From positions 95,542,001-95,606,000 of the forward strand of contig CM097883.1 of assembly GCA_044892505.1 (NCBI GenBank): a stretch of DNA of 64,000 nt, written 5' to 3'. This DNA is from Schmidtea nova (lineage: Eukaryota). Below, in pieces: positions 2,882-30,661 of this stretch (positions within the stretch are counted from its first letter, which is position 1; the number at the start of each line of letters is the position of its first letter). Position numbers and translations under genes: made by a program. Under the pieces are notes generated by a model. It was not told where the DNA came from. It saw only the letters and a list, made by a program, of their open reading frames with translations, and did no database searches.

Positions 2882-3228
2882 TGTGAGAATATTGAAATTA
2901 AACAGTATTTAATTTTCAGTTTTTAATGGATATAATAAAATTAGATAATAAAATTATAAATTAGCATAGTAAATTAAATATAAATATTGAAGTTATTAAT
3001 TGGCTTGATTGTAAATTTCATATTTAAGAATAATTGAAAATTGAAAATATAAAATGTATATTGAATGCTTGTGTATGAATATTCCCTATTCAATTATTAA
3101 TTCTGCTTGCAAAAATAATATCCTCAAAGATAAAAAAAGAAATTGTTTTAATAATTACAGAAATTTTGTGTTGTTTTTAAAATATATCTTGAGAAATAAG
3201 GGATGTTCTTAATTTTCGAAACCAAACA
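2882..3228 (+). repeat. 5' LTR
   Basis: Begins tgtgagaata and ends aaaccaaaca; roughly 90-95% identical by eye to 10975-11318. Confidence 0.85.
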
Positions 3229-3234
3229 AATAAT

Positions 3235-3700
3235 ATGGCGACCACAATGGCCAATTTTATCAAGGCACCGGAAAATTTTGAGATGGTAACCAATGTCGAA
3301 GATTTTATAAAAGAAACAGAAAGATTTTTTGAATTAATGTCGATAGCTGAAGATTTTAAAGGAAGATTTGTCAAAGCTTTCTTATCAACGGATGCAATTA
3401 AAAATATGATCTTACCCATGAGGAAAAAAATTAAATGGATAGACTGAGAGGAGCCTTCAAAAAGCCAATGAATCTGATGGAAGACTTAAGTGAAGCGCTA
3501 GAATATAGACAAGGAGATGATTCCGCGGATGAATTCTGCGAAAAAATTGAGAAATTATCAAGAATTCTGAAACATGAATTTAATGAAGAAGAGCTCCAAA
3601 GATTTCTCATATTCAATGCAGTGGAAGACCAAGATTTGAAAAAGGATTTGAGATTAAATGAATATAAATCAGTGGATGAAATGAAAAAGAATCAAAAAAC
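3235..3700 (+). pseudogene. gag: Gag fragment, frameshifted near 3430
   Basis: MATTMANFIKAPENF...EDFIKETERFFEL... continues in another frame as YRQGDDSADEFCEKIEKL, typical of a retrotransposon gag capsid domain. Confidence 0.7.
3236..3245 (+). promoter_or_regulatory. Primer-binding site TGGCGACCAC (tRNA-Arg-type)
   Basis: Lies 7 nt after the LTR end and is complementary to the 3' end of metazoan tRNA-Arg(UCG) (...GUGGUCGCCA); overlaps the gag ATG at 3235. Confidence 0.65.
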
Positions 3701-6299
3701 ACGAAAAGGTACCGTAGTACAAGAAATTAACAGCAAAGTTAACAAGATACAAAAGAAGTGGACAAAGGAGCACCAAGAAGCATTCAATAAACTAAAAGAA
3801 AGATTGATAACAGCACCAGTGTTAAGATATCCAGATTTCGAAAAACAGTTTATAGTAATGACGGATGCCAGCGGGAAAGCCGTAGGAGCAGTCTTAGGCC
3901 AAGAAGAAGAGAAAGGGAAAGATTACGTAATAGCATATGCCAGTAAAACACTAAAAGGAGCACAGCTGAGGTATTCAACAATAGAAAAAGAATGTTACGC
4001 AATAGTATTCGCCCTAAAACAATTCAAACCATACATATATGGGACTGAAGTGATAATAAGAACAGACCATAAACCATTAGAAGGCTTATGGAAACATAAA
4101 GATACATCAAGTAGATTACTTAAATGGGCAATGAAAATACAAGACATGCACCTAAAAATTATATATAAACCAGGTAGAATAAATAAAAACGCAGATGCAC
4201 TATCAAGAATACCAGAATTAGGAGCACTTGAAATATTTGCACTAGTAGCAGAAAAACCAATCGATATATATGAGGAACAGATGAAAGACCCAGAGATCAG
4301 TAAAATAAGAAATGAAATCAGAAAAGAAAACAATTCAAAGTATAAAATATCAAAGAAATTAGTAGTAATAGAAGATTTCAATGGTAAGCAACTAATAGTA
4401 GTACCTCAGAAATTAAGACAAATACTCCTACTACAATATCACGATGGAGCATTAGGAGGTCACTTATCATCTAGAAAGACAGCAAGTAGATTATTACAAA
4501 AATATTACTGGGAAGAATTAAAGAAAGATGTTAAGAGATGGTGTAACGCGTGTACAATATGTGCAACAAGAAAAAATACAGGTACAAAAACAAAAGCGCC
4601 GTTACATCCCATTCCAGCAACGACATCACCAATGGAACTATGTGCCATGGATTTTCTATGTAAATTACCTACTACAATTAATGGGAATAAACATATACTA
4701 GTATTTAGTGATTATTTTACTAGATGGGCAGAAGCATTTCCAACAAAAGACGAAACAGCAGAAACAGTTGCTAAATTGCTTATAGAAAAAATTATTTTCA
4801 AGATAGGCACACCCAAAAGATTATTAACAGATAAAGGAACAAATTTTACTAGTGAATTAATAAAACGAGTAGCTAATATTTTTAACATGCAAAAGATCAA
4901 CACAACAGCGTATCACCCTCAAACTGATGGACTAGTAGAAAGATTTAATGGGACATTACTAAGCAGACTAGCTGTTTTTGTAGGAAAAAATCAAAATGAT
5001 TGGGACGAATACATAAGTCAATGCACATACATTCATAATATCACTCCAAACGAAACAACAGGGTATTCACCGTATTATTTAATGTTTTTAAGAGAACCAG
5101 CAACACCAATAGATACAATATTTGAACCTCGAGTATCACAATATTTAGATGCACCAGATTATGTCACACTAATGCAGGAAAAACTGCAAGAAGTGTATAA
5201 AGTAGCCAATCTAAAGGTCAAATATAGACAAGAACAGTACAAAGCCGACTACGACAAAAATAGTAAACCACACAACTTTAAAGTAGGTGATAAGGTTAGA
5301 CTTATGTCACCACAAGTAGGAAAGGGAAAAACAACAAAATTAGCAAGACTATATAAAGGCCCATATGAAGTAGTAAAAGTAATAAATGAGAATTTACACT
5401 TACAAAAACATAAAAACGAGGATCCAATAGTAGTACATGTCAACAGATGCAAGTTGGCGGAAGCCGAGGTCACGATAGATAAACCTCACAAGTATAATCT
5501 AAGATCTCATAACGAACTAATAATATCGGCTATCTTCTTAACAATCATAACATTTGTTGGCTCAACCGAAACAATAGAATTTGACAAAGTATTAATAAAA
5601 ATATCAACAAACGAAGTTAGAGCATTTATCATAAATAGAGGAGTAATTGATTTATACATGCAAACAACGAACGGGAAAAACCCAAAGATGATAAAAGGAA
5701 AAGACGACAGAACAACCAACGAAATCGAAAGAGGAAACTATATTAATTTCACAAAACTAACACCTAATACAATATACAGAATCTGCATACAGAGAAACAC
5801 AGATACAACAACATGGAGATGCAAAAAAATAAAAACAGAACAATTACCCAAGAATATAACAAAAAACCATAACATAACAAAAACACTCGATAAAATAAAA
5901 AGCACAACAACGACATCAGATAATATACTAAATACCACACCACATACAAACGAAATACCAACAAGCACTGGAATAGCCAAATTCCAAAAACAACACAATG
6001 CCAAAAAACAAAAACAAGAACCTATCAAAATAAGGCAAGGAAGACCAATAGTGATACATAACTTAGAGGAACTACAAGCATTTCGTAAAGAGGATAAAAA
6101 GCCACATTGGCCTTATTATGTCATCACAACATCAATAATAGCATTAGCAGTTTTAGCTTTAATAACTAGCGTACAAATTTATAAAAAGTACAAGTGGAAA
6201 AGGCAGCGGTATCGGAGCCGACTGGTCAGAAATGTACCAGGGCATTTCCATTTGGGCAAATATATACCAGGTGAATATACAAAATCCACATTGGTATAA
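3435..6299 (+). CDS. pol: Gag remnant fused to RT-connection/RNase H/integrase, then a C-terminal FN3-like + Thr/Lys stalk + transmembrane extension
   Basis: WTKEHQEAFNKLKERLITAPVL (connection); VMTDASG, YSTIEKECYAIV, TDHKPL, NADALSR (RNase H); HDGALGGH...CNACTIC (HHCC); MDFL, LTDKGTNF, YHPQTDGLVERFN (DDE); GPY/F. After YNLRS: hydrophobic LIISAIFLTIITFVGS, FN3-like FTKLTPNTIYRICIQ, TM YYVITTSIIALAVLALITSVQIY and basic tail KKYKWKRQRYRSR. Confidence 0.85.
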   Translation: MDRLRGAFKKPMNLMEDLSEALEYRQGDDSADEFCEKIEKLSRILKHEFNEEELQRFLIFNAVEDQDLKKDLRLNEYKSVDEMKKNQKTRKGTVVQEINSKVNKIQKKWTKEHQEAFNKLKERLITAPVLRYPDFEKQFIVMTDASGKAVGAVLGQEEEKGKDYVIAYASKTLKGAQLRYSTIEKECYAIVFALKQFKPYIYGTEVIIRTDHKPLEGLWKHKDTSSRLLKWAMKIQDMHLKIIYKPGRINKNADALSRIPELGALEIFALVAEKPIDIYEEQMKDPEISKIRNEIRKENNSKYKISKKLVVIEDFNGKQLIVVPQKLRQILLLQYHDGALGGHLSSRKTASRLLQKYYWEELKKDVKRWCNACTICATRKNTGTKTKAPLHPIPATTSPMELCAMDFLCKLPTTINGNKHILVFSDYFTRWAEAFPTKDETAETVAKLLIEKIIFKIGTPKRLLTDKGTNFTSELIKRVANIFNMQKINTTAYHPQTDGLVERFNGTLLSRLAVFVGKNQNDWDEYISQCTYIHNITPNETTGYSPYYLMFLREPATPIDTIFEPRVSQYLDAPDYVTLMQEKLQEVYKVANLKVKYRQEQYKADYDKNSKPHNFKVGDKVRLMSPQVGKGKTTKLARLYKGPYEVVKVINENLHLQKHKNEDPIVVHVNRCKLAEAEVTIDKPHKYNLRSHNELIISAIFLTIITFVGSTETIEFDKVLIKISTNEVRAFIINRGVIDLYMQTTNGKNPKMIKGKDDRTTNEIERGNYINFTKLTPNTIYRICIQRNTDTTTWRCKKIKTEQLPKNITKNHNITKTLDKIKSTTTTSDNILNTTPHTNEIPTSTGIAKFQKQHNAKKQKQEPIKIRQGRPIVIHNLEELQAFRKEDKKPHWPYYVITTSIIALAVLALITSVQIYKKYKWKRQRYRSRLVRNVPGHFHLGKYIPGEYTKSTLV

Positions 6300-6459
6300 T
6301 ACGTTTTGGTCAATAATAATAATTAAAATCATATATATTCGTATTTATATAGCGTATAAGGTTAAACCGACAATACGCCTTAAACAAAAATCTTTATCCT
6401 TTATTTTTAGAAAAGAATACACGAGCAAAACAAAGCAAGTTCCAACAAACTCCGAAAAC

Positions 6460-6700
6460 CCAATCAATCTCGTGAATTCTACACACCAATCAAATCATTG
6501 CGACAACCATTCAAAAATCTCAATAAATACAATCATCTCTTTTTTAAACTGTCACAACAAACAATCAAAAAACCCTACTAATTATCTCCATACAAAATAC
6601 CCAATCAATCTCGTCAATTCTATAAACCAATCGAATCGTTACGACAATTACCCATATATCTCAATATATTCAATTATATCTCTGTTAAACTGTCAAAACC
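6460..6700 (+). repeat. Imperfect ~140-bp direct duplication between ORF1 and ORF2
   Basis: ccaatcaatctcgtgaattctacacaccaatc... (about 6461) versus ccaatcaatctcgtcaattctataaaccaatc... (about 6601). Confidence 0.7.
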
Positions 6701-6762
6701 CTATTAATCATCTCTCAAATCAATATATCAAGAAATCAATTCGATACCAATCAAAAACAAAG

Positions 6763-8862
6763 ATGAATCAAAATCAACCTCATTTCAATCAATCAAGAAC
6801 CTACCAGAAATACACTTGTTTTATAAACAAACTCAACATGAGTTTTTATAAAAATCTACAGAACAAGATATGTACTGATGGAACCCCAATTACAATTCGC
6901 AGTTTCCCAAATCAAATATGTATCCCAAACGACATGAAAGTCGAAATAGAAGAACGGGAAATGCATCTGATAAAATTCAATGAGGCCCGAAGAGTGAAAC
7001 TCAAAGAGCTTATTGAAACCTTCGACAAATACCAAAACGTCGACAAAGAAGTTGCCGAAAATAAGAGAATCCCTCACAGATTAATATTCCACATGACAAA
7101 AACAGAAGTTGCAATATGTCAAAATAAAATCCCGTTAATTGTCACAAGCAACTGTTCAGCAGTTATTAAGTTAATAAGAAAAGACAGAAGCATGTCAAAC
7201 GATTTCAATGAGCTGACAGTGCAGATGAATAACCTACCATGTGTGATAGCAATCGAAGTGCTATATATCCCGACAATCCCAAATCCGTTCATAAAATTAA
7301 ACCCAATACATTCAATCCTACAAATAAATGAAGATATGATCAACCAGAAGATATCATTCACGAATCAAGAATTAACGACAGAAGAAAGGCATTCATTAAC
7401 TGTAATTGTGGATATAAAAGCAGTTCAAGATATAAACAAAAATCTCAGACCAGTGGAAATTTGTATCAGAAGCAGAAAAGGGGCAATTCTGTATAACAAA
7501 TTCATCACCCCAAGAACGAAAGTAGAAAAATTCTACACGGAAAAAACTAAAGCTACAAAAGAAAACATAATTGGAAATGAAGACGAATATAAATCCTTAA
7601 ATGAAATTCGAAACATTCTCTATGGAAAGATCATAGTTGGATTCAACATCATAGATAAGTTAAAACTATTGACGATAGATCTGGACAACATTATGGGCAT
7701 AAGAGAAATGGCACAGGATCGATTCATGTGTTCATTTGTAAAAAACGTGGCCCCACCAAAAATAAAAATATCAAATTTGGCTTACCAGGTAATCAATTAC
7801 CATAAAAGTTGGCATAAAGATAAAAAGTTAAATGATATATTGAGACAACCAGAACCATTCTCAACAAAGATCACCACAATGCTATTAAAAGTTATCTACG
7901 ATATCACAGAAAATAAATGGGAAGAAGTTGTCAAATGGGATTCCGCAACACTTCTTAAAAGGAAACAAGCAAAAGGAGAAGAACAACTAGAAACAATATT
8001 CGAAAACGAAACAGAGAGCGAAGCAGAAGGTGAGATAGAAAGTGAATATGAAGATGGAGAAGGCATGGAGCCGTCCCATGGGGAATCAACAAAAACCAAT
8101 CATAACAAACCAAAAAAGTCATTCATGGAAGAGCTCATGGACAGTGACGACGATGAACTCATGATCATAAAAGAAGAAATACCACTTATCGCTCCAACTA
8201 GAGGAATCAAAGCAGAACCCAAAATTCAAAATATTCTATATGAAAGAATGGACGAATGTGATATAGATGATGAATATTTCTCAGCAGATGAGAACATAGA
8301 AGAACCTTCAACCAGCAGTAACGACATCAAAATGGAAGAAGATAATGAAGAACCATCAACAAGTAATAATTACAACATAATGGAAGAGGATATCGGACCA
8401 GAACCAAACGTTGAAATGTTAGCCGACTGGACAGAACCAGAAGAATCAGATTTCATAATAGACAAAGACAAAAAGTATGTCTCAGAAAAAGATCTCTGCA
8501 CTCATTTTGGAAGACAAATTGAGCACGAGGAAACGATAAACCTTGCGATAAAAAATGGATTTCGAAAAACAACAATTCAAATAAAAGAGAAAAGAATTGA
8601 TTTAATATTGTGTGACAAGGGTAATGAGGACATTACTTTGACGGCCCGGGGAGGAATGTTGGATGATGAAGGTAAGCCCATCAATACATTCCTCCTATCA
8701 GAAAATTATAGTGTGGGGGGCAACAAATACAGAGTGAATATTTATGCAGAGCCTGTCGATACAACCAATATTCAAAAAGAAACAGAACCCAATATCAATC
8801 AGTACCCAGTGCACAATCAATCCAAGCACCAACCAGGATATCAACATCCATTTGATATTTAA
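6763..8862 (+). CDS. Retroelement accessory ORF2 with a degenerate REX4-like DEDDh exonuclease domain and an acidic C-terminal region
   Basis: Uninterrupted frame (open from 6232; probable start 6763 or 6838). VIVDIKAV...GAILYNKFITPRTKV...NILYGKIIVGFNIIDKLKLL...IREMA...KISNLA...IYDITENKWEE follows the REX4/RNase T motif order. Confidence 0.7.
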   Translation: MNQNQPHFNQSRTYQKYTCFINKLNMSFYKNLQNKICTDGTPITIRSFPNQICIPNDMKVEIEEREMHLIKFNEARRVKLKELIETFDKYQNVDKEVAENKRIPHRLIFHMTKTEVAICQNKIPLIVTSNCSAVIKLIRKDRSMSNDFNELTVQMNNLPCVIAIEVLYIPTIPNPFIKLNPIHSILQINEDMINQKISFTNQELTTEERHSLTVIVDIKAVQDINKNLRPVEICIRSRKGAILYNKFITPRTKVEKFYTEKTKATKENIIGNEDEYKSLNEIRNILYGKIIVGFNIIDKLKLLTIDLDNIMGIREMAQDRFMCSFVKNVAPPKIKISNLAYQVINYHKSWHKDKKLNDILRQPEPFSTKITTMLLKVIYDITENKWEEVVKWDSATLLKRKQAKGEEQLETIFENETESEAEGEIESEYEDGEGMEPSHGESTKTNHNKPKKSFMEELMDSDDDELMIIKEEIPLIAPTRGIKAEPKIQNILYERMDECDIDDEYFSADENIEEPSTSSNDIKMEEDNEEPSTSNNYNIMEEDIGPEPNVEMLADWTEPEESDFIIDKDKKYVSEKDLCTHFGRQIEHEETINLAIKNGFRKTTIQIKEKRIDLILCDKGNEDITLTARGGMLDDEGKPINTFLLSENYSVGGNKYRVNIYAEPVDTTNIQKETEPNINQYPVHNQSKHQPGYQHPFDI

Positions 8863-9060
8863 TATTTGATTAACATTCGACATTTGATATTTAATATTTG
8901 ATCCTTAACATTCGACATTTGATATTATTATTGGGAATGTGATATATTATTTCTTGTATATATTTTATTTCTAGTGTAAATATTTGATATGAACATTCAA
9001 CATTGGATATTATTATTTTTAGTTGGGAATGCGATATATTATTTTATTTCTTTTAAATGT
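8845..9060 (+). repeat. Short tandem repeats (acattcgacatttgatatttaatatttgat) in the ORF2 3' region
   Basis: Several ~30-60 bp imperfect copies directly after the ORF2 stop. Confidence 0.65.
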
Positions 9061-9719
9061 ATATAATTTAGAAAATTATTATTAATATTTATTTTAAAAT
9101 GTACTTTTTAATGAAATATTTTATTTCAATGGATATTGGAATTATTTTATTTCAACGGATATTATAATCGGGGCAACATAATTGTAGCATGGAAAAATAG
9201 ATAAAGGAAATTATTTTAATTGTTTTGTTTGGGTAGCGAGTTGTCATGAGTGAAATAATTGTTTTGTTCCAATAACGAAATTATTTTAATTGTTTCAATA
9301 TCTAGATGAAATTATTTTAATTATTTCAATATTATTATATGAAAAATTTTAGTATATAAAGAAGTGAAAATTTTTAAAATTTGCCCACAATTTTTTGAAA
9401 TTCAATTTCAATCAAAATTTTGCGACATAAAATTTCTCAAAGGGTAATCCTGCGAGAACTCAAAATTTACGGACAGCACAAAAACGTCCAACACGAAATT
9501 GTTATAGCTAAAATAAACATAATACATTCACGTAAATAACAAGCACACAGTAGGACACGCAAAAATATCTTTTAAATAAACTTTGTAAAACAGTTATACA
9601 GATTTGAAAGTGTAATTTATAACTTTTGATTTTGATTTCGGTAAATTTTGTTATTGAATAAATTTTTCAAAAAACTTGATCTTATTTTTATATACTATAG
9701 TCTACACCAGTGCACGTTG

Positions 9720-10974
9720 AGATCTAAAAATCTTGGACCTCAACACAATTCCAGACTTGGATCAATTTTTTAAGTAGTTTGGAAATAGAATTTCAATACA
9801 GGAAAGGAGAAGAACATTGCAATGCAGATGCATTGTCAAGAAGGGAATATATGACATGCGTTCAATGCCAAACCATTCATATTAATCCAAAGACAGGAAA
9901 ACTCAAAACGAAGCTCTTGGCAATAATGACAGAAAACCCAGAACAAGAATGGTAAAGGAATTCAAAAGAAATTACAGAAATTATTAACAACATAAAACAA
10001 AAAAGGGCAATAAATTCTTAATGAAAAGTAGAGTAATATTCACAGAAAACAATAAAATATGGATTCCGGATGATGAAAGAATTAAATTCATTAAAAAGTA
10101 TCTTAAGAAACTGTGTCATGCTGGACCAATAAAAATTGAGAAATATGTGTCAAATAAATTTTCAATGAAACACATGAAACGAATGATCCAAGACGTAGTT
10201 CAAAGTTGTGAAAATTGTCAAAAGAGGAAAGCTGCAACTACACAGACTAAAGAGAAAATTTGTAAATTGTCAGAACCAGGTTTATTTGAAACAATATTTA
10301 TAGATTTTTGTGGTCCACTGAAACAAAGTCAGTATGGAATGAGATATATCTTAGGAATTATCGATAGTTTTAGTAAACATGTGATACTAAATGCAGAAAA
10401 ATCACAAGACGAAAAAACTGTTACAACAATTTTAAGAAATAATTGGATTTTAAAATAAGGAGCACCGAGATTCATACATTGTGACAGGGGTAAAGCAAAG
10501 TTATGGATAATTTAATGAAGGAGCATAACATTAAAATTATATTTTCAAGCCCTTACCATCATTCGGCGAATGGCCTAATCGAAATTAGAGATGCCATTCA
10601 TGTCACTTTAAAAGATCAGATCACAAGAACTGGGTGGAGTTATTACCAGAAATCGAGTTTATGCTGAATTCCACATTCCAGAAAACAATTAAGCAAACTC
10701 CATGTGAAAGAGTGTTTGGAAAAAGTATATATAAAGAATGGTCTACAAATATGTCAATTGAGAATACAAGTTTTGATGAAATAACCGAAAGAAAATTAAA
10801 AATAGGAGACATAGTGCTAGTAAAAAGAAATGATAACTACAAAGACGATGATAGATACTTTGGACCTGCAAAAGTGATAAAACAAATTCCGGAGAAGAGC
10901 TATGAAGTAGAACTTGTTAATGGAAAAAGGTTTTCACGAAATATAGAGTGGCTAAAGCCTTTTAAAAAAGGGGA
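9720..10974 (+). pseudogene. pol: Second, decayed gypsy RNase H C-terminus + integrase
   Basis: QTWINFLSSLEIEFQYRKGEEHCNADALSR; CHAGP...CENCQKRK; IFIDFCGPL; IDSFSK; IHCDRG; YHHSANGLIE; YFGPAKV. Contains stops and frameshifts. Confidence 0.85.
10964..10974 (+). promoter_or_regulatory. Polypurine tract aaaaaagggga
   Basis: Immediately precedes the 3' LTR. Confidence 0.7.
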
Positions 10975-11318
10975 TATGAGAATAATTTAATAAAACAGTA
11001 TTTAATTTTCAGTTTTTAATGGATATAATAAAATTAGATAATAATATTATAAATTAGCATAGTAAATTAAATATAAATATTGAAGTTATTAATTGGCTTG
11101 ATTGTAAATTTCATATTTAAGAATGATTGAAAATTAATATATAAAATGTATATTGAATGCTTGTGTATGAATATTCCCAATTCAATTATTAACTCTGCTT
11201 GCAAAGATATCCTCAAAAATAAAAAAAAGAAATTGTTTGAATTATAACAGAAATTTTGTGTTATTTTTAAAATATATCTTAAGAAATAATGGATGTTCTT
11301 AATTTGCGAAACCAAACA
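10975..11318 (+). repeat. 3' LTR
   Basis: Direct repeat of 2882-3228. Confidence 0.85.
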
Positions 11319-11628
11319 AATAGAAAGGAAGAATTGTTTTATAAAGCAAAAAAACGAAGAAATTGTTTAAAAAAGTACAAAAAAAGTTAGTTAAAAAAGT
11401 CGACAAGAGGAAACCATTTTAAAAAGCACAAAGCACTATACATTTTTAAAGCAGGAATATCAAAGTCATTTTAAAAGAATAAAGATAAATCAATATCTAA
11501 TTTGTCGAAACACTATTTAATTTGTTCATCTAAGACACTGTATTGAAGCGAGTCAACCAAACGATTCATTAAGCACCTGATACTTTATAAATAAATGTTG
11601 TATTTTATTTTATTCTATTTAGTATTAA

Positions 11629-11932: not shown

Positions 11933-14900
11933 TTAACATTCAATGGAATAATGTAATTGATGGCCATTCTTTTTCGAAAATTTGTAACGAGTATTTCTAT
12001 TATTGGTCCCATCAAATTGTTCTCCTTTATAAAATCTGCAAAAACAATTAATTTAAAAATATATTTTTAAAGTTTTACGTTTGATTTGAAACAAGATATA
12101 AATATTTCTTATATTTGTTGTTTGATTGTTTATCTTGTGTAACAAAAGCAGATGTAACATTTGGAATGGTCTCACCTCCGAAATTAATGAGTTCGCCCAC
12201 ACTGTGAATGCTGTCATGATACTCAGCAAAATCATTAGTTAGATAGATGTGTATAAGTTTATTATCCTGGAAACGTACGCTACATTTAAAAGCCGAGATA
12301 TATAAAAACATACCTTAATAGAATGTATCAGAGTGATTTTTCCAAAAATGAATCTCAAAAAGGCATTAGTAATTTTCCCAGGAGTTTTTTTCCATGAAAT
12401 GTATCTTACATTGGTAAAATTGCTGATATCGGGGCCACTACCAATCGTAATTATGTCATCTGAAAACATAGATATGAAATTATCAAATAAATAAAAAAAA
12501 ATACTTTTAAATGCAACTAATTCATTTCTATTCGGATCAAAGAATAATGAATCGGCATTCGAAAACCGTTTGTCTAATATAACAGCCTTGAAGCTAGAAT
12601 CAAGAGCAAAATCTTTCATTTTCAAAGCGTGATTTGAATCGGTCAATAGATATATAGAATCCAGATCTACAACGCGCACAATTTATATGATAGCACATAT
12701 AAAAATTTACAATTGAAAATAGTTTTAATTTTTTGAAGTCCACATTTATTTGGCAAATTTGTAACGGAAGTGGAATATCTGATTTGACCAGTCGTTAACG
12801 ACTGAGGCAATGTCGATTGAGTCCTTTTTGGGTCGGTTTTCACACCAGTTTTATTTTTATTGGAGACATTGTGATCAAAAATAGAATTTGGTTTATTTGT
12901 TGACAAAATTAAATGGTTAGTTTTCTCGTTTTCAAAATTAAATTCATCAAAAGAATCACAAGGAACTCTATAAAATTAATGACTTAAAATATTAGAAAAA
13001 TAAATATTACTTCATTATTTTATCTAAAGTTGTCCAGTTCGCAACATTAATCTCAAAAAATTCCTTCAAACGAGCAGAATTTTCAGCTACATAAATTCTA
13101 TTTACAAAATAAATAAATAAGTAAATCAAAATTTAATAGTTACTTTTCACCATCAACAAAATATAATTGTTTCTGTCCCAACGAATTAGTAGTAAATGTT
13201 GAATTTACATTGATACTGATGTTTTGATTATTAACATTACGAATAATATCATTAATATTATTAGCATGACTTGAAAATTGTACAGAATTTCCACGCAGAA
13301 TACCAGTAACAGCTTGATTGTTCTAATGAATCAAAATTTTTAAATTAGAAGATTATTTTTGAAATCCAACTTGAATTATCCACATCTTTGAATAATTTAT
13401 ATTTTTCTGCTGCGGACAAAATACAGCCTTAATTGGACCTTTAAATATTCCATTTGACTGAATTTTGAGTTCAGAAATTTTCAAATTGCTCAAATCAGAA
13501 CCAGACGCCGTAAATATTTTATCATCTGAAAAATTAAATCTCAATTTAATAATTTAATATTTTGTTATAAAATACTTTTAAAAAATATAATTTTTTGAAT
13601 TCGTTCGTCGAAAAACATTGAATCAGATTCAAAAACCTCTTTTGTCAATTTAATTGGTCTAAATGACCAATCGATTTCCCCAGTGGATAAAATTCGATAT
13701 ATCATTCCGTTACTTTTAGTAATAAATATTTGATGATTTATATCTAAATTACAAATGAATTATGGAAAATTATGTAATAAGTTACATACAGTTAAAAACT
13801 CTAAAAATATTGCAGTCAGAATGAATTAAATTATTATCTTTGGAATTTGGAATATTTATTATAACGTTGTTATTATTAACAGTATTGGAAGTATAAAATA
13901 AATTTCGATTTTTCTTCGAAACGGTAAAATTGTTTTTCTTTACATCATCAATAGTTCTGACAGCAAAAGTTTTTTTATCAATGCTAATTGTCTTATTCAA
14001 AACATGCAAAACTATTTTGCTATCCGAATTCTCGTCAACAGAAACTGAAGGATTTTGTTCACATCCACCGTCACTTCCACAACCTCCATTATAATGATTA
14101 TTAATATTCACATTAATAACATTTATTTGGCCGACTGCAGTGTTTACATTTGAAAAAGAATTGTTTGAAACATATGAAATATTATAGTAATTTTTATAAA
14201 TTGGACATTCAGGTTCATGGAAACATTTTGGAGGAGGACATGGGGGATTATTTGGAGGACGGTTTGGAGATGGTGGACAAGTACAAGGAACGTCAGATGA
14301 ATGATGAGAATGAGTTGTCAAATGGTGATCTTCAGTTGTCGAAGTGGCAAGTGTGGCAGTTCCAGTAGTTACACTTTCTGAAGCAGTGGATGATTGTTGA
14401 GTTTGTTCAGTGGTATTGATATCAGTTGAAACTTGTTCACTCGTTACTTTCGATGGTGAAGTGGTTTGTTCTTCAGTTATCGAAGTGGCAGGTGTGGCAG
14501 TTCCAGTAGTTACACTTTCTGAAGCAGTGGATGATTGTTGAGTTTGTTCAGTGGTATTGATATCAGTTGAAACTTGTTCACTTGTTACTTTCAATGGTGA
14601 AGTTGTTTGTTCTTCAGTTTTTGAAGTGGCAGGTGTGGCAGTTCCAGTAGTTACACTTTCTGAAGCAGTGGATGATTGATGAGTTTGTTCAGTGGTATTG
14701 ATATCAGTTGAAACTTGTTCACTAGTTACTTTCGATGGTGAAGTGGTTTGTTCTTCAGTTGTCGAAGTGGCAGGTGTTGCAGTTCCAGTAGTTAGACTTT
14801 CTGAAGCAGTGGATGATTGATGAGTTTGTTCAGTGGTATTGATATCAGTTGAAACTTGTTCACTAGTTACTTTCGATGATGAAGTGGTTTGTTCTTCAGT

Positions 14901-17900
14901 TGTCGAAGTGGCAGGTGTGGCAGTTCCAGTAGTTACACTTTCTGAAGCAGTGGATGATTGTTGAGTTTGTTCAGTGGTATTGATATCAGTAGAAACTTGT
15001 TCACTAGTTACTTTCGATGATGAAGTGGTTTGTTCTTCAGTTGTCGAAGTGGCAGGTGTGGCAGTTCCAGTAGTTACACTTTCTGAAGCAGTGGATGATT
15101 GTTGAGTTTGTTCAGTGGTATTGATATCAGTTGAAACTTGTTCACTAGTTACTTTCGATGATGAAGTGGTTTGTTCTTCAGTTTTTGAAGTGGCAGGTGT
15201 GGCAGTTCCAGTAGTTACACTTTCTGAAGCAGTGGATGATTGTTGAGTTTGTTCAGTGGTATTGATATCAGTTGAAACTTGTTCACTAGTTACTTTCGAT
15301 GATGAAGTTGTTTGTTCTTCAGTTGTCGAAGTGGCAGGTGTGGCAGTTCCAGTAGTTACACTTTCTGAAGCAGTGGATGATTGTTGAGTTTGTTCAGTGG
15401 TATTGATATCAGTTGAAACTTGTTCACTTGTTACTTTCGATGGTGAAGTGGTTTGTTCTTCAGTTGTCGAAGTGGCAGGTGTGGCAGTTCCAGTAGTTAC
15501 ACTTTCTGAAGCAGTGGATGATTGTTGAGTTTGTTCAGTGGTATTGATATCAGTTGAAACTTGTTCACTAGTTACTTTCGATGATGAAGTGGTTTGTTCT
15601 TCAGTTGTCGAAGTGGCAGGTGTGGCAGTTCCAGTAGTTACACTTTCTGAAGCAGTGGATGATTGTTGAGTTTGTTCAGTGGTATTGAAATCAGTTGAAA
15701 CTTGTTCACTAGTTACTTTCGATGATGAAGTGGTTTGTTCTTCAGTTGTCGAAGTGGCAGGTGTGGCAGTTCCAGTAGTTACACTTTCTGAAGCAGTGGA
15801 TGATTGTTGAGTTTGTTCAGTGGTATTGATATCAGTTGAAACTTGTTCACTTGTTACTTTCGATGGTGAAGTGGTTTGTTCTTCAGTTGTCGAAGTGGCA
15901 GGTGTGGCAGTTCCAGTAGTTACACTTTCTGAAGCAGTGGATGATTGTTGAGTTTGTTCAGTGGTATTGATATCAGTTGAAACTTGTTCACTTGTTACTT
16001 TCGATGGTGAAGTGGTTCGTTCTTCAGTTGTCGAAGTGGCAGGTGTGGCAGTTCCAGTAGTTACACTTTCTGAAGCAGTGGATGATTGTTGAGTTTGTCC
16101 AGTGGTATTGATATCACTAGAAACTTGTTCACTAGTTACTTTCGATGATGAAGTGGTTTGTTCTTCAGTTTTTGAAGTGGCAGGTGTGGCAGTTCCAGTA
16201 GTTACACTTTCTGAAGCAGTGGATGATTGTTGAGTTTGTTCAGTGGTATTGATATCAGTTGAAACTTGTTCACTAGTTACTTTCGATGATGAAGTGGTTT
16301 GTTCTTCAGTTTTTGAAGTGGCAGGTGTGGCAGTTCCAGTAGTTACACTTTCTGAAGCAGTGGATGATTGTTGAGTTTGTTCAGTGGTATTGATATCAGT
16401 TGAAACTTGTTCACTTGTTACTTTCAATGGTGAAGTTGTTTGTTCTTCAGTTGTCGAAGTGACAGGTGTGGCAGTTCCAGTAGTTACACTTTCTGAAGCA
16501 GTGGATGATTGTTGAGTTTGTTCAGTGGTATTGATATCAGTTGAAACTTGTTCACTAGTTACTTTCGATGATGAAGTGGTTTGTTCTTCAGTTTTTGAAG
16601 TGGCAGGTGTGGCAGTTCCAGTAGTTACACTTTCTGAAGCAGTGGATGATCGTTGAGTTTGTTCAGTGGTATTGATATCAGTTGAAACTTGTTCACTTGT
16701 TACTTTCGATTGTGAAGTGGTTTGTTCTTCAGTTTTTGAAGTGGCAGGTGTGGCAGTTCCAGTAGTTACACTTTCTGAAGCAGTGGATGATTGTTGAGTT
16801 TGTTCAGTAGTATTGATATCAGTTGAAACTTGTTCACTTGTTACTTTCAATGGTGAAGTTGTTTGTTCTTCAGTTTTTGAAGTGACAGGTGTGGCAGTTC
16901 CAGTAGTTACACTTTCTGAAGCAGTGGATGATTGTTGAGTTTGTTCAGTGGTATTGATATCAGTTGAAACTTGTTCACTTGTTACTTTCGATGGTGAAGT
17001 GGTTTGTTCTTCAGTTGTCGAAGTGGCAGGTGTGGCAGTTCCAGTAGTTACACTTTCTGAAGCAGTGGATGATTGTTGAGTTTGTTCAGTGGTATTGATA
17101 TCAGTTGAAACTTGTTCACTTGTTACTTTCGATGGTGAAGTGGTTTGTTCTTCAGTTGTCGAAGTGGCAGGTGTGGCAGTTCCAGTAGTTACACTTTCTG
17201 AAGCAGTGGATGATTGTTGAGTTTGTTCAGTGGTATTGATATCAGTTGAAACTTGTTCACTTGTTACTTTCGATGGTGAAGTGGTTCGTTCTTCAGTTGT
17301 CGAAGTGGCAGGTGTGGCAGTTCCAGTAGTTACACTTTCTGAAGCAGTGGATGATTGTTGAGTTTGTCCAGTGGTATTGATATCACTAGAAACTTGTTCA
17401 CTAGTTACTTTCGATGATGAAGTGGTTTGTTCTTCAGTTTTTGAAGTGGCAGGTGTGGCAGTTCCAGTAGTTACACTTTCTGAAGCAGTGGATGATTGTT
17501 GAGTTTGTTCAGTGGTATTGATATCAGTTGAAACTTGTTCACTAGTTACTTTCGATGATGAAGTGGTTTGTTCTTCAGTTTTTGAAGTGGCAGGTGTGGC
17601 AGTTCCAGTAGTTACACTTTCTGAAGCAGTGGATGATTGTTGAGTTTGTTCAGTGGTATTGATATCAGTTGAAACTTGTTCACTTGTTACTTTCAATGGT
17701 GAAGTTGTTTGTTCTTCAGTTGTCGAAGTGACAGGTGTGGCAGTTCCAGTAGTTACACTTTCTGAAGCAGTGGATGATTGTTGAGTTTGTTCAGTGGTAT
17801 TGATATCAGTTGAAACTTGTTCACTAGTTACTTTCGATGATGAAGTGGTTTGTTCTTCAGTTTTTGAAGTGGCAGGTGTGGCAGTTCCAGTAGTTACACT

Positions 17901-20900
17901 TTCTGAAGCAGTGGATGATCGTTGAGTTTGTTCAGTGGTATTGATATCAGTTGAAACTTGTTCACTTGTTACTTTCGATTGTGAAGTGGTTTGTTCTTCA
18001 GTTTTTGAAGTGGCAGGTGTGGCAGTTCCAGTAGTTACACTTTCTGAAGCAGTGGATGATTGTTGAGTTTGTTCAGTAGTATTGATATCAGTTGAAACTT
18101 GTTCACTTGTTACTTTCAATGGTGAAGTTGTTTGTTCTTCAGTTTTTGAAGTGACAGGTGTGGCAGTTCCAGTAGTTACACTTTCTGAAGCAGTGGATGA
18201 TTGTTGAGTTTGTTCAGTGGTATTGATATCAGTAGAAACTTGTTCACTTGTTACTTTCGATGATGAAGTGGTTTGTTCTTCAGTTTTTGAAGTGGCAGGT
18301 GTGGCAGTTCCAGTAGTTACACTTTCTGAAGCAGTGGATGATTGTTGAGTTTGTTCAGTGGTATTGATATCAGTTGAAACTTGTTCACTTGTTACTTTCG
18401 ATGATGAAGTGGTTTGTTCTTCAGTTTTTGAAGTGGCAGGTGTGGCAGTTCCAGTAGTTAGACTTTCTGAAGCAGTGGATGATTGTTGAGTTTGTTCAGT
18501 GGTATTGATATCAGTAGAAACTTGTTCACTAGTTACTTTCGATGATGAAGTGGTTTGTTCTTCAGTTTTTGAAGTGGCAGGTGTGGCAGTTCCAGTAGTT
18601 ACACTTTCTGAAGCAGTGGATGATTGTTGAGTTTGTTCAGTGGTATTGATATCAGTTGAAACTTGTTCACTTGTTACTTTCGATTGTGAAGTGGTTTGTT
18701 CTTCAGTTTTTGAAGTGGCAGGTGTGGCAGTTCCAGTAGTTACACTTTCTGAAGCAGTGGATGATTGTTGAGTTTGTTCAGTGGTATTGATATCAGTAGA
18801 AACTTGTTCACTTGTTACTTTCGATGATGAAGTGGTTTGTTCTTCAGTTTTTGAAGTGGCAGGTGTGGCAGTTCCAGTAGTTACACTTTCTGAAGCAGTG
18901 GATGATTGTTGAGTTTGTTCAGTAGTATTGATATCAGTTGAAACTTGTTCACTTGTTACTTTCGATGGTGAAGTGGTTTGTTCTACAGTTTTTGAAGTGT
19001 CAGGTGTGGCAGTTCCAGTAGTTACACTTTCTGAAGCAGTGGATGATTGTTGAGTTTGTTCAGTGGTATTGATATCAGTTGAAACTTGTTCACTTGTTAC
19101 TTTCGATGGTGAAGTGGTTTGTTCTTCAGTTTTTGAAGTGGCAGGTGTTGCAGTTCCAGTAGTTACACTTTCTGAAGCAGTGGATGATTGTTGAGTTTGT
19201 TCAGTGGTATTGATATCAGTTGAAACTTGTTCACTTGTTACTTTCAATGGTGAAGTTGTTTGTTCTTCAGTTTTTGAAGTGGCAGGTGTGGCAGTTCCAG
19301 TAGTTACACTTTCTGAAGCAGTGGATGATTGTTGAGTTTGTTCAGTGGTATTGAAATCAGTTGAAACTTGTTCACTAGTTACTTTCGATGATGAAGTGGT
19401 TTGTTCTTCAGTTGTCGAAGTGGCAGGTGTGGCAGTTCCAGTAGTTACACTTTCTGAAGCAGTGGATGATTGTTGAGTTTGTTCAGTGGTATTTATATCA
19501 GTAGAAACTTGTTCACTTGTTACTTTCGATGATGAAGTGGTTTGTTCAGTTGTCAAAGTCTCAGGTGTGGCAGTTCCAGTAGTTACACTTTCTGAAGCAG
19601 TGGATGATTGTTGAGTTTGTTCAGTGGTATTGATATCAGTAGAAACTTGTTCACTTGTTACTTTCGATGATGAAGTGGTTTGTTCTTCAGTTTTTGAAGT
19701 GACAGGTGTGGCATTTCCAGTAGTTACACTTTCTGAAGCAGTGGATGATTGTTGAGTTTGTTCAGTGGTATTGATATCAATTGAAACTTGTTCACTTGTT
19801 ACTTTCGATGATGAAGTGGTTTGTTCAGTTGTCGAAGTCTCAGGTGTGGCAGTTCCAGTAGTTACACTTTCTGAAGCAGTGGATGATTGTTGAGTTTGTT
19901 CAGTGGTATTGATATCAGTTGAAACTTGTTCACTTGTTACTTTCGATTGTGAAGTGGTTTGTTCTTCAGTTTTTGAAGTGGCAGGTGTGGCAGTTCCAGT
20001 AGTTACACTTTCTGAAGCAGTGGATGATTGTTGAGTTTGTTCAGTGGTATTGATATCAGTAGAAACTTGTTCACTTGTTACTTTCGATGATGAAGTGGTT
20101 TGTTCTTCAGTTTTTGAAGTGGCAGGTGTGGCAGTTCCAGTAGTTACACTTTCTGAAGCAGTGGATGATTGTTGAGTTTGTTCAGTGGTATTGATATCAG
20201 TTGAAACTTGTTCACTTGTTACTTTCGATGATGAAGTGGTTTGTTCTTCAGTTTTTGAAGTGGCAGGTGTGGCAGTTCCAGTAGTTACACTTTCTGAAGC
20301 AGTGGATGATTGTTGAGTTTGTTCAGTGGTATTGATATCAGTTGAAACTTGTTCACTTGTTACTTTCGATGGTGAAGTGGTTTGTTCTTCAGTTTTTGAA
20401 GTGGCAGGTGTTGCAGTTACAGTAGTTACACTTTCTGAAGCAGTGGATGATTGTTGAGTTTGTTCAGTGGTATTGATATCAGTTGAAACTTGTTCACTTG
20501 TTACTTTCGATGGTGAAGTGGTTTGTTCTTCAGTTGTCGAAGTGGCAGGTGTGGCAGTTCCAGTAGTTACACTTTCTGAAGCAGTGGATGATTGTTGAGT
20601 TTGTTCAGTGGTATTGATATCAGTAGAAACTTGTTCACTAGTTACTTTCGATGATGAAGTGGTTTGTTCTTCAGTTTTTGAAGTGGCAGGTGTGGCAGTT
20701 CCAGTAGTTACACTTTCTGAAGCAGTGGATGATTGTTGAGTTTGTTCAGTGGTATTGATATCAGTTGAAACTTGTTCACTTGTTACTTTCAATGGTGAAG
20801 TTGTTTGTTCTTCAGTTGTCGAAGTGGCAGGTGTGGCAGTTCCAGTAGTTACACTTTCTGAAGCAGTGGATGATTGTTGAGTTTGTTCAGTGGTATTGAT

Positions 20901-23900
20901 ATCAGTTGAAACTTGTTCACTTGTTACTTTCAATGGTGAAGTTGTTTGTTCTTCAGTTGTCGAAGTGGCAGGTGTGGCAGTTCCAGTAGTTACACTTTCT
21001 GAAGCAGTGGATGATTGTTGAGTTTGTTCAGTGGTATTGATATCAGTTGAAACTTGTTCACTTGTTACTTTCGATGGTGAAGTGGTTTGTTCTTCAGTTG
21101 TCGAAGTGGCAGGTGTGGCAGTTCCAGTAGTTACACTTTCTGAATCAGTGGATGATTGTTGAGTTTGTTCAGTGGTATTGATATCAGTAGAAACTTGTTC
21201 ACTAGTTACTTTCGATGATGAAGTGGTTTGTTCTTCAGTTTTTGAAGTGGCAGGTGTGGCAGTTCCAGTAGTTACACTTTCTGAAGCAGTGGATGATTGT
21301 TGAGTTTGTTCAGTGGTATTGATATCAGTTGAAACTTGTTCACTTGTTACTTTCGATTGTGAAGTGGTTTGTTCTTCAGTTTTTGAAGTGGCAGGTGTGG
21401 CAGTTCCAGTAGTTACACTTTCTGAAGCAGTGGATGATTGTTGAGTTTGTTCAGTGGTATTGATATCAGTTGAAACTTGTTCACTTGTTACTTTCAATGG
21501 TGAAGTTGTTTGTTCTTCAGTTGTCGAAGTGGCAGGTGTGGCAGTTCCAGTAGTTACACTTTCTGAAGCAGTGGATGATTGTTGAGTTTGTTCAGTGGTA
21601 TTGATATCAGTTGAAACTTGTTCACTTGTTACTTTCGATGGTGAAGTGGTTTGTTCTTCACTTGTCGAAGTGGCAGGTGTGGCAGTTCCATTAGTTACAC
21701 TTTCTGAAGCAGTGGATGATTGTTGAGTTTGTTCAGTGGTATTGATATCAGTAGAAACTTGTTCACTAGTTACTTTCGATGATGAAGTGGTTTGTTCTTC
21801 AGTTTTAGAAGTGGCAGGTGTGGCAGTTCCAGTAGTTACACTTTCTGAAGCAGTGGATGATTGTTGAGTTTGTTCAGTGGTATTGATATCAGTTGAAACT
21901 TGTTCACTTGTTACTTTCGATTGTGAAGTGGTTTGTTCTTCAGTTTTTGAAGTGGCAGGTGTGGCAGTTCCAGTAGTTACACTTTCTGAAGCAGTGGATG
22001 ATTGTTGAGTTTGTTCAGTGGTATTGATATCAGTAGAAACTTGTTCACTTGTTACTTTCGATGATGAAGTGGTTTGTTCTTCAGTTTTTGAAGTGGCAGG
22101 TGTGGCAGTTCCAGTAGTTACACTTTCTGAAGCAGTGGATGATTGTTGAGTTTGTTCAGTGGTATTGATATCAGTTGAAACTTGTTCACTTGTTACTTTC
22201 AATGGTGAAGTTGTTTGTTCTTCAGTTGTCGAAGTGGCAGGTGTGGCAGTTCCAGTAGTTACACTTTCTGAAGCAGTGGATGATTGTTGAGTTTGTTCAG
22301 TGGTATTGATATCAGTTGAAACTTGTTCACTTGTTACTTTCGATGGTGAAGTGGTTTGTTCTTCAGTTGTCGAAGTGGCAGGTGTGGCAGTTCCAGTAGT
22401 TACACTTTCTGAAGCAGTGGATGATTGTTGAGTTTGTTCAGTGGTATTGATATCAGTAGAAACTTGTTCACTTGTTACTTTCGATGATGAAGTGGTTTGT
22501 TCTTCAGTTTTTGAAGTGGCAGGTGTGGCAGTTCCAGTAGTTACACTTTCTGAAGCAGTGGATGATTGTTGAGTTTGTTCAGTGGTATTGATATCAGTTG
22601 AAACTTGTTCACTTGTTACTTTCGATGGTGAAGTGGTTTGTTCTTCAGTTGTCGAAGTGGCAGGTGTGGCAGTTCCAGTAGTTACACTTTCTGAAGCAGT
22701 GGATGATTGTTGAGTTTGTTCAGTGGTATTGATATCAGTAGAAACTTGTTCACTAGTTACTTTCGATGATGAAGTGGTTTGTTCTTCAGTTTTTGAAGTG
22801 GCAGGTGTGGCAGTTCCAGTAGTTACACTTTCTGAAGCAGTGGATGATTGTTGAGTTTGTTCAGTGGTATTGATATCAGTTGAAACTTGTTCACTTGTTA
22901 CTTTCGATTGTGAAGTGGTTTGTTCTTCAGTTTTTGAAGTGGCAGGTGTGGCAGTTCCAGTAGTTACACTTTCTGAAGCAGTGGATGATTGTTGAGTTTG
23001 TTCAGTGGTATTGATATCAGTTGAAACTTGTTCACTTGTTACTTTCAATGGTGAAGTTGTTTGTTCTTCAGTTGTCGAAGTGGCAGGTGTCGCAGTTCCA
23101 GTAGTTACACTTTCTGAAGCAGTGGATGATTGTTGAGTTTGTTCAGTGGTATTGATATCAGTTGAAACTTGTTCACTTGTTACTTTCGATGGTGAAGTGG
23201 TTTGTTCTTCAGTTGTCGAAGTGGCAGGTGTGGCAGTTCCAGTAGTTACACTTTCTGAAGCAGTGGATGATTGTTGAGTTTGTTCAGTGGTATTGATATC
23301 AGTAGAAACTTGTTCACTAGTTACTTTCGATGATGAAGTGGTTTGTTCTTCAGTTTTTGAAGTGGCAGGTGTGGCAGTTCCAGTAGTTACACTTTCTGAA
23401 GCAGTGGATGATTGTTGAGTTTGTTCAGTGGTATTGATATCAGTTGAAACTTGTTCACTTGTTACTTTCGATTGTGAAGTGGTTTGTTCTTCAGTTTTTG
23501 AAGTGGCAGGTGTGGCAGTTCCAGTAGTTACACTTTCTGAAGCAGTGGATGATTGTTGAGTTTGTTCAGTGGTATTGATATCAGTTGAAACTTGTTCACT
23601 TGTTACTTTCAATGGTGAAGTTGTTTGTTCTTCAGTTGTCGAAGTGGCAGGTGTGGCAGTTCCAGTAGTTACACTTTCTGAAGCAGTGGATGATTGTTGA
23701 GTTTGTTTAGTGGTATTGATATCAGTTGAAACTTGTTCACTTGTTACTTTCGATGGTGAAGTGGTTTGTTCTTCAGTTGTCGAAGTGGCAGGTGTGGCAG
23801 TTCCAGTAGTTACACTTTCTGAAGCAGTGGATGATTGTTGAGTTTGTTCAGTGGTATTGATATCAGTAGAAACTTGTTCACTTGTTACTTTCGATGATGA

Positions 23901-29900: not shown

Positions 29901-30661
29901 TTTCGCATAAAGATACTTCACAAGTTCATTTTTTACGTGCTTTAGAAACTTCTGGTAATCTTCATTGTTATTTGTAAGATTCTTTGGTACGTCTATTTTT
30001 GGGAATTCAATATATACTGTCTTTCTTTGATTCGGGTTTATTACACCTAAACAATAAATTATTATATTTTTATTAATACATTTTCTACTCACCGTGCTTT
30101 TTCATTTCTCTGACAATGATCTTTTGCAGCCTTACTGTAATCTCAACTATTTCGTCGTATTTGGATTTGGATTTCTGTATTTTCATGTACAGTTTAATAT
30201 TCGATGCATCATTCGAATCAGAACTGTATATGATGTCACCTTGTTTTTTCAATTCATCGCCTATCCGTTTTCTAATTACTTCTCTAAGCAACCTGATTGT
30301 CTTTTCATCACTGAGCTTTCCAGATTTATTAATATAAAAGCTTAATTTTTTTAAGTCGACTTTTGGAGGTTCGCTTTTGATAAATCCTAAAGTTAGATTA
30401 ATTCTTTGTGAATTTGTGATGGGATTTATTTCCATACCTAAATTTTCCAATTCTTTATCAACAAGGTAAGTAATGATTTCCTTGATTTTCAAGTATTCCT
30501 TTTGCAATTTCACCTGTTCGACAGAATCTTGTCCTTGTATCTGACTGGCTGTGCCGTAAATACCTAAATACAAAAATGTTTAGAAATTTATAAGCTTTTC
30601 CCATCTGTGAATACTCACATAATATGAACCATGTTAAACCCAAAATTGTGGATTTATACAT
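11933..30661 (-). CDS. Giant secreted mucin with two C-terminal hemopexin-like modules (paralogue 1, ~6,050-6,100 aa, ~12 exons)
   Basis: Exon 1 30661-30619 + exon 2 30563-30093 give signal peptide MYKSTILGLTWFILCIYGTAS. Exon 3 30046-13790 is a stop-free 16.3-kb frame. Downstream exons 13743-13576, 13525-13371, 13322-~13142 etc. are separated by 45-56 bp GT-AG introns. Hemopexin-like DSMFFDERIQKIIFFK and ADSLFFDPNRNELVAFK; ends ...HYSIEC-stop at 11933. Confidence 0.85.
14335..29040 (-). repeat. Coding tandem array, 141-bp unit (47 aa: STASESVTTGTATPATSKTEEQTTSSSKVTSEQVSTDINTTEQTQQS), ~104 copies
   Basis: Period measured at 141 bp (gtggcag at 14353 and 14494); a few 138-bp units lack one Glu codon; frame preserved throughout. 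Confidence 0.97.

Follow-up and report, generated by a model that had tools for sequence, protein, structure and literature searches.

Behind the pol region of a young, errantivirus-like Ty3/gypsy element in the planarian Schmidtea nova, an element of the known planarian gag-env-pol type, lies a second open reading frame (ORF2) that is the subject of this analysis. The element was read in a stretch of 64,000 nucleotides (hereafter the window; contig CM097883.1, positions 95,542,001 to 95,606,000 of the forward strand), and all positions given for it are those of the window. We conclude that ORF2 very probably encodes a functional pseudo-nuclease, in which an ISG20/REX4-type DEDDh exonuclease fold has lost its catalytic residues and is kept by purifying selection, and this upholds the pseudo-nuclease put forward in a preliminary description made from the sequence alone. 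Two parts of the protein were absent from that description, namely an N-terminal β-barrel domain and an upstream extension of the frame, and no earlier description of the barrel-plus-DEDDh architecture was found.

A DEDDh fold with a replaced catalytic signature

The pseudo-exonuclease domain lies at 7360–7950 (+). Its five catalytic columns, which read D-E-D-H-D in cellular-type matches, read D-K-K-F-T in the window (D217 at 7411, K219 at 7417, K299 at 7657, F366 at 7858 and T371 at 7873; residues are counted from the ATG at 6763), so that four of the five are replaced. The corresponding motifs are D217-I-K219, V-G-F294 and F366-S-T-K-I-T371, the His of the VGH motif not being among the five scored columns. 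The preliminary description had read D-I-K, VGF and FSTKIT correctly but had missed the replacement of the ExoII Asp by K299.

That this is a REX4-type DEDDh fold, as had been claimed, is borne out at the level of both sequence and predicted structure. The window ORF2 matched ISG20 (1wlj) with phmmer at E 9.6e-5, a profile built from six copies with replaced catalytic residues (dead copies) alone did so at 2.9e-5, and a profile of four dead copies and seven with the catalytic residues retained (live copies) reached 6e-14 to ISG20L2 and 2e-12 to ISG20. Of two checks that had been suggested beforehand, a match to the Pfam RNase_T profile and a structural comparison, the first gave nothing for the window protein, which does not reach the gathering cut-off of PF00929; four other dead copies are likewise without a match, and live sisters pass it (29.8 bits; 45.6 and 37 bits). 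The second check succeeded. An AlphaFold model of residues 16–396, made from an alignment of 100 sequences (pLDDT 95, pTM 0.91) and superseding an earlier fold from six sequences with a pLDDT of only 37.7, superposes on ISG20 with Z 18.1 and a root-mean-square deviation of 2.6 Å over 160 aligned residues, with Pan2, SDN1 and DnaQ lower at Z ~14 and Exuperantia (PDB 5l80) at Z 10.1; Foldseek on the DEDDh domain gave E 1.4e-7. The model thus confirms a DnaQ-like/DEDDh fold from which the ExoI D-x-E, ExoII D and ExoIII H-x4-D motifs are absent. The proteins of the ISG20/ISG20L2/REX4 type (PDB 1wlj, 7yw5; SDN1 5z9x) share this fold and motif order and are the best match of ORF2 in both sequence and structure; ORF2 differs from them in the four replaced columns, the fused β-barrel and its place on a separate branch, and many live members from elements read DEED rather than DEDD.

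The replaced signature is maintained by selection

All six subfamily copies compared, which go down to 48% identity, read D-K-K-F-T, and each of the five sites shows different synonymous codons among them. The signature recurs in 29 of 29 close copies as well as in the database homologues P0002 and P0003. (These two entries are chimeric predictions that join ORF2 to unrelated sequence, in P0002 a biotin carboxylase N-terminus.) Across the exonuclease domain, the proportion of synonymous differences (pS) between subfamilies A–D is 0.74–0.81 and that of nonsynonymous differences (pN) 0.13–0.25 in six of six pairs, and A versus G gives pS 0.77 and pN 0.34; dN/dS can only be bounded from above by these Nei-Gojobori values, since they show the synonymous sites to be saturated. 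Between subfamilies the barrel region is at least as strongly constrained, and other dead lineages are also conserved (pS 0.70–0.79, pN 0.31–0.35). Based on the invariant replaced signature, the saturated pS with low pN and the frame-specific avoidance of stop codons described below, the DEDDh domain of ORF2, judged from sequence divergence, is under purifying selection and is not decaying. The preliminary description had named as its own counter-case that relatives retain the catalytic residues and this copy simply decays; the relatives do keep DEEDh residues, but the window lineage does not decay. It should be noted that little can be concluded from the intact frame of the single window copy, a 5'-truncated fragment from a young family. 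A genome search with the window domain gave 2,020 candidates, of which the best 150 were scored; all of these 150 match at 61–100% identity and 127 are without a stop in the domain, a choice by best score that favours intact copies and biases the close copies to low dN.

The RNase H-integrase region of the same subfamily pairs has a dS of 0.075–0.30, compared with saturation in ORF2, and the long terminal repeats (LTRs) of A, C, D and F cannot be aligned with each other although gag-env-pol is 90–97% identical. ORF2 and the LTR therefore appear to form cassettes much older than the pol they ride on and to have been exchanged by recombination. One such exchange at the end of the first frame (ORF1) separates L034/L035 from L115–L118, L043, L045 and L049, with ORF2 ~69% identical.

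A β-barrel without a metal triad

The N-terminal domain (6808–7281, +; residues ~16–173) is, in the model, a double-stranded β-helix core of the kind found in cupins and 2-oxoglutarate (2OG)-Fe(II) oxygenases. Its best structural matches are the algal prolyl-4-hydroxylase 2jij (Z 11.8 over 149 residues), Ofd2 (10.0), ALKBH6 (9.8) and cupins (9.6); the scores are middling, and with AlkB-type and cupin rows both at 9–10 the subfamily is not separated. Over 52 rows, dead and live alike, the conserved residues are Y29, P55 and N56 (a P-N motif), R65, H110 (88%), S132 and E165 (87%). With H110 the single conserved His and E165 the single conserved Glu, neither the HxD/E..H iron triad nor the 2OG-binding R/K was found in these rows, as judged from alignment columns rather than from distances. 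None of the 100 alignment members has a Pfam match in the barrel, and the ESM Atlas gave no usable match for this domain. A profile of live N-domains alone does not find the dead N-domains significantly (E 0.18–3.6), and the homology of the two is drawn from their joint alignment, intermediate proteins and the confident model. The fold is thus shared with 2OG-Fe(II) oxygenases/AlkB and cupins, including the AlkB-bearing replicases of plant viruses, but the ORF2 barrel lacks the metal triad and is less than ~15% identical to them.

Frame, layout and upstream extension of ORF2

The ORF2 frame (6166–8862, +) lies +1 relative to ORF1, overlaps its end, and is open for 898 codons from stop to stop, with in-frame ATGs at 6232 and 6763 that give 876 and 699 amino acids (aa), respectively. 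The intact frame of about 700 aa noted earlier therefore stands if counted from 6763, but the open frame is considerably longer, reaching ~177 codons upstream of that assumed start. In the 463 nucleotides from the ORF1 stop to 6763 there are no stops in the ORF2 frame, compared with nine and seven in the other frames and an expectation of 10.5, and the same avoidance is seen in subfamilies C, D (two copies) and F despite differing sequence and length. Of 30 close copies, 26 have the frame open over this whole distance, and in the three live elements tested every frame of the matching region is interrupted by stops. From these sequence features the region upstream of 6763 looks coding, and its reading as an untranslated region, made from a depletion of ATGs, was dropped when it proved to be open in frame. 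The extension (6300–6762, +) begins with a hydrophobic stretch (6301–6357) followed by a variable N/Q/S/H-rich linker. Translation of ORF2 may start at the ATG at 6232, in which case a moderately hydrophobic stretch lies close to the N-terminus of the 876-aa form, or alternatively ORF2 may be entered by a +1 shift from the cytoplasmic tail of ORF1.

Downstream of the nuclease-like domain, what had been taken for a long acidic tail proved to be a linker followed by a conserved end. The linker (7948–8472, +; aa 396–570, with 55 D/E and 16 K/R among 175 aa) evolves fast, with a pN of 0.31–0.42 between subfamilies and looser constraint than the folded domains. The conserved C-terminal segment of ~100 aa (8443–8742, +) overlaps at its end the polypurine tract and the start of the LTR, which partly force its conservation. 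A C-terminal motif shared by live and dead forms was considered and is not supported.

Live and dead relatives

A genome search with PF00929 gave 112 matches among 139 candidates, and 30 loci read from these comprise 28 of a related repeat family (with D-A-E, GHDLQSE and HTALED), one host gene and one locus without a frame. The host gene, L051 1162–2346 (−), is a single-frame DEDDh gene with the best PF00929 match in the genome, and from its motif we take it to be ERI-1-like. This live D-E-E-H-D version lies directly behind pol in four env-bearing sister lineages of the same genome, and the position is also taken by the ORF of a second dead lineage (R). Four internally deleted copies of the live family (L081, L084, L093 and L111) have retained the nuclease ORF together with gag and some of the ORF1 tail, and probes found no env, reverse transcriptase (RT) or integrase in the stretch read. 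A further degenerate nuclease ORF, L147 2178–3980 (−), is close to live forms; the sequence read upstream of it contains no pol that belongs to it.

In lineage R, ORF1 ends at a TGA-CAA-TTA stop that is in frame with ORF2 in six of six loci from two diverged subfamilies (L144–L146 and L149 at 5904; L148; L150 at 6003). We take this to be a leaky-stop context. The ORF1 stop is followed by a strong hydrophobic segment (2.4–2.6). ORF2 here comes after the ORF1 membrane tail, and read-through of the stop from ORF1 into ORF2 is probable.

A search of 1.84 billion proteins with the joint profile gave 1,969 matches. The best 150 of these together with the window protein include 66 that read DEDHD, 18 DEEHD and 3 DKKFT, the rest being partial or otherwise replaced, and other dead clades have unrelated residues in the same catalytic columns. 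Element-type sequences branch apart from cellular-type ones in two trees (support 100/98 and 100/100; sequences were called cellular-type because they have the D-C-E-M motif of ISG20). The cellular-type rows form a starred clade of their own, and the window protein is not inside this cellular REX4/ISG20 clade. One cluster, that of P0035, has 24 near-identical live-type proteins, many on contigs of 15.6–17 kb that are possibly whole elements.

A metagenome scan gave 12 loci, seven of them element-type, and in five of the seven (four distinct sequences) a dead ORF precedes a live one; the remaining two contigs are too short to show such a tandem. Upstream of these ORFs, the two longest loci carry gypsy RT, RNase H and integrase as well as ankyrin repeats. 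In giant relatives (L124 1–6660 and L128 3–7106) the integrase is followed by a further aspartic protease domain, by ankyrin repeats and then by the dead and live ORFs in tandem. Outside this genome, an element context is established for the L123–L129 group alone, and most of the database homologues come without one. A scan for distant dead homologues with P0063/P0068 gave none, nor did viral contigs and phages.

In the RT tree the window lineage, R, and the tandem and live elements form separate branches, and the tandem dead form belongs to a different clade from that of the window. The exonuclease-domain tree groups the dead forms (93/93, unstarred), whereas the tree of both domains splits them on an unresolved backbone, with at least four state changes and an AU test p of 0.049; catalysis may have been lost once or several times.

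The host element

The window holds the 3' part of ORF1 of the element (3715–6299, +), with the end of the RT connection, RNase H and integrase identified by Pfam and a membrane tail behind them, and blastn matches to longer copies begin at 3715. The tail (5520–6173, +) consists of a hydrophobic segment, an FN3-like ectodomain, a Thr-rich stalk and a transmembrane segment (hydropathy 1.79 and 2.23). The FN3-transmembrane fusion noted earlier is therefore right as to the transmembrane segment, and its FN3 part is a lead: the first ESM Atlas match is FNDC9/fn3 (0.90), with a recognition score below the tool threshold. A polypurine tract within ORF2 (8648–8656, +) stands directly 5' of the 3' LTR (8657–9745, +; TG...CA), which corresponds to the LTR pairs found in longer copies. 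Lacking its 5' part, the window copy starts abruptly at 3715 and sits inside an older, unrelated gypsy element, of which an LTR (2884–3232) and a broken gag remnant (2884–3714, +) adjoin it at 3715 and the end of RNase H, a decayed integrase and a second LTR (10977–11322), 93.4% identical to the upstream one, follow at 9746–11322 (+).

Longer copies are ~14 kb, and in six of the seven copies of the window lineage tested the LTR pairs are 97.5–100% identical. Their ORF1 encodes in one frame, by Pfam, a zinc knuckle, a Bcl-2-like domain (E 5e-6, below the Pfam cut-off), a fusion glycoprotein, protease, RT, RNase H and integrase. The glycoprotein, between gag and pol, is of the Monjiviricetes type (class III-type; PF24664, E 1.6e-88 in a longer copy) and is deleted from the window copy. 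With it and the Bcl-2-like domain, the virus-like accessory gene set surmised for this gypsy lineage is present.

A gag-env-pol layout with a BCL2-like motif has been published for the planarian Burro/GYPSM1 elements (PMC6431247), and Smed_errantivirus_1/2 are two gag-env-pol errantivirus entries of 14.8 kb from Schmidtea (PMC13524379). The window lineage shares with both the gag zinc knuckle, the BCL2-like motif and a mononegavirus-like env in frame before protease, RT, RNase H and integrase. It is similar in size to Smed_errantivirus_1/2 and smaller than Burro (ORF1 ~3,000 versus 4,873 aa), and neither the giant size nor the ankyrin/BIR/MATH modules of Burro were found in it. A downstream exonuclease ORF is not described in the available text for Smed_errantivirus (no mention of exonuclease or DEDD; PMC13524379) or for Burro (PMC6431247).

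Proposed role of ORF2 and alternative explanations

We put forward a hypothetical mechanism in which ORF2 acts as a membrane-tethered RNA or ribonucleoprotein (RNP) adaptor, a proposal that we hold tentatively and at somewhat less than an even chance. The ancestral protein would have been bifunctional, combining a 3'-5' exonuclease with a binding function, and the window lineage would have dropped catalysis and kept binding, the two lysines beside the retained Asp filling the metal site. An N-terminal hydrophobic extension would have been gained or, alternatively, the protein would have been fused by recoding to the membrane tail of ORF1. The resulting cytoplasmic adaptor would hold element RNA or RNP through basic surfaces and the barrel, and not through the old 3'-end pocket, and would thereby aid particle assembly and keep the RNA from host decay or silencing. 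Tandem dead and live copies behind pol are what would be expected if two functions were split. The mean charge of the 19 dead domains is +3.1, compared with −1.6 in 38 live element forms.

Several observations weigh against this mechanism. The basic shift counts for little, since cellular-type DEDDh domains carry an equally basic charge (+2.9, n = 28). The pocket-lining positions 263 and 295, which are 97–100% conserved in the 38 live members, vary in the 19 dead ones, a pattern that speaks against canonical binding of 3' ends at the old site; P250, R251, D274, G312, R314 and W386, by contrast, are the same in all 19. In the window lineage the hydrophobic stretch is of borderline strength (hydropathy 1.16–1.88, with internal K/R), a degenerate subfamily-G copy has a short extension without an ATG, the one tandem dead form examined (L128) has no N-terminal extension, and no known +1 recoding signal was established between ORF1 and ORF2. 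RNA-end binding, RNA shielding and an action against PIWI-interacting RNA (piRNA) or small interfering RNA silencing were proposals of the preliminary description and would still stand as such, the variable pocket positions counting against the first of them in dead forms.

Of the alternatives, a protein decoy, which would imitate a host DEDDh nuclease or bind and block the small-RNA or antiviral machinery of the host and so give the earlier anti-silencing proposal a route through protein contact, is unlikely but has the most in its favour. The element carries another module that could meddle with the host (the Bcl-2-like domain), planarian LTR elements are piRNA targets (PMC8532177), and several old and divergent ORF2 versions sit on nearly identical pol (dS 0.075–0.30), as in an arms race; the folded domains, however, are under strong purifying and not positive selection, and no host partner was identified.

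We consider it improbable that the dead protein is a partner or inhibitor of its live paralogue, the two associating in cis where they are encoded in tandem and in trans where separate families live in one genome. The dead-then-live tandem ORFs in five of seven element-type metagenome loci and the co-occurrence of live and dead families in this genome would fit such pairing, but the window lineage and R carry the dead gene alone and have kept it over deep divergence, and the tandem dead form is of a different clade. That ORF2 is still an enzyme under selection, acting through the barrel or by a metal-independent chemistry of the D/K/K residues, is similarly improbable: H110, E165, S132, R65 and the P-N motif are conserved across the 52 rows, and D217, K219 and K299 are invariant within the lineage, yet the barrel has no HxD/E..H metal triad and other dead clades have unrelated residues in the D/K/K columns.

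We give still less credence to ORF2 being a subfamily-specific regulator of its own LTR or RNA, comparable to foamy-virus Tas or a Rev-type protein and with the acidic region as an activation domain. ORF2 and the LTR do travel together, the LTRs being unalignable on a gag-env-pol of 90–97% identity, and ORF2 overlaps U3, but this physical linkage explains their co-inheritance without any function, and a hydrophobic N-terminus or a fusion to the membrane tail fits a nuclear role poorly. Finally, the idea of a nuclease gene that is simply decaying while a young element carries it along can practically be dismissed, for although the window copy is a truncated fragment and the close copies were chosen by best protein score, with the bias to low dN that this brings, the three observations on which the case for selection was built above speak against it.

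More speculatively, and in our view unlikely in this full form, enveloped gypsy elements may carry a hitherto undescribed accessory family, a cupin-like barrel joined to an ISG20-like DEDDh domain, that has repeatedly been turned into membrane-tethered pseudo-enzymes, by an N-terminal extension or by recoding onto an FN3-like receptor tail. These would serve as a counter-defence against RNA decay or piRNA silencing by the host, in some cases alongside a live copy, and would be swapped between subfamilies as ORF2-plus-LTR cassettes.

Comparison with known systems

Accessory ORFs of the DEDD superfamily have been described in other mobile elements. The bdelloid LTR retrotransposons Juno and Vesta carry behind pol, the same position as here, a DEDDy ORF3 that is RNase D-like, reads DEED and has its catalytic residues intact (PMC5408684), and KolobokD DNA transposons carry a DEDDh protein like exuperantia/TREX/ERI1 (PMC9587614). 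In the available text of these two descriptions there is no barrel fusion, no dead-live pair and no selected dead lineage. The live sisters here differ from the rotifer DEDDy ORF3 in having H-x4-D and ISG20-type best matches, a distinction made from the published description rather than from direct sequence comparison. Nucleic-acid binding by a dead DEDD fold has precedents in PML PXL (PMC13659232) and in Maelstrom and EXD1 (PMC5408684). These cellular pseudo-nucleases and Exuperantia (PDB 5l80) have, like ORF2, a DEDD fold without the catalytic residues, and they are kept for nucleic-acid binding; they are host genes of other DEDD subfamilies, whereas ORF2 is element-borne and ISG20-like. No account of a nuclease in gag-env-pol elements that is ISG20-type, fused to a barrel, or dead and yet selected was found in the literature; the search did not cover Repbase, so that an earlier annotation of the live ORF is possible.

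For most accessory genes of retrovirus-like elements in invertebrates there is no explanation, and in the papers considered here the DEDD ORFs are intact enzymes whose role is unclear. Here natural versions with and without the catalytic residues are found at one and the same place in sister elements, each conserved by purifying selection and in some elements side by side, which makes a direct comparison of the role of the nuclease possible. PIWI controls planarian LTR elements (PMC8532177), and if the dead form did shield RNA or block silencing, it would be a counter-defence encoded by a retroelement in animals whose stem cells rely on PIWI. The family also brings to mobile DNA a protein architecture that joins a barrel to a DEDDh domain, and what may be a case of pseudo-enzymes evolving more than once.

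Other features of the window

A mucin-like open frame of 5,439 codons at 13782–30101 (−) consists mostly of ~46-aa repeats rich in Thr/Ser/Glu/Gln and has a Cys/Pro-rich end, and a second mucin-like copy at 60167–64000 (−) starts at the right end of the window. Other mobile-element fragments, judged by eye from translations, lie at 34165–34803 (−), 39166–39744 (−) and 49271–49846 (−).

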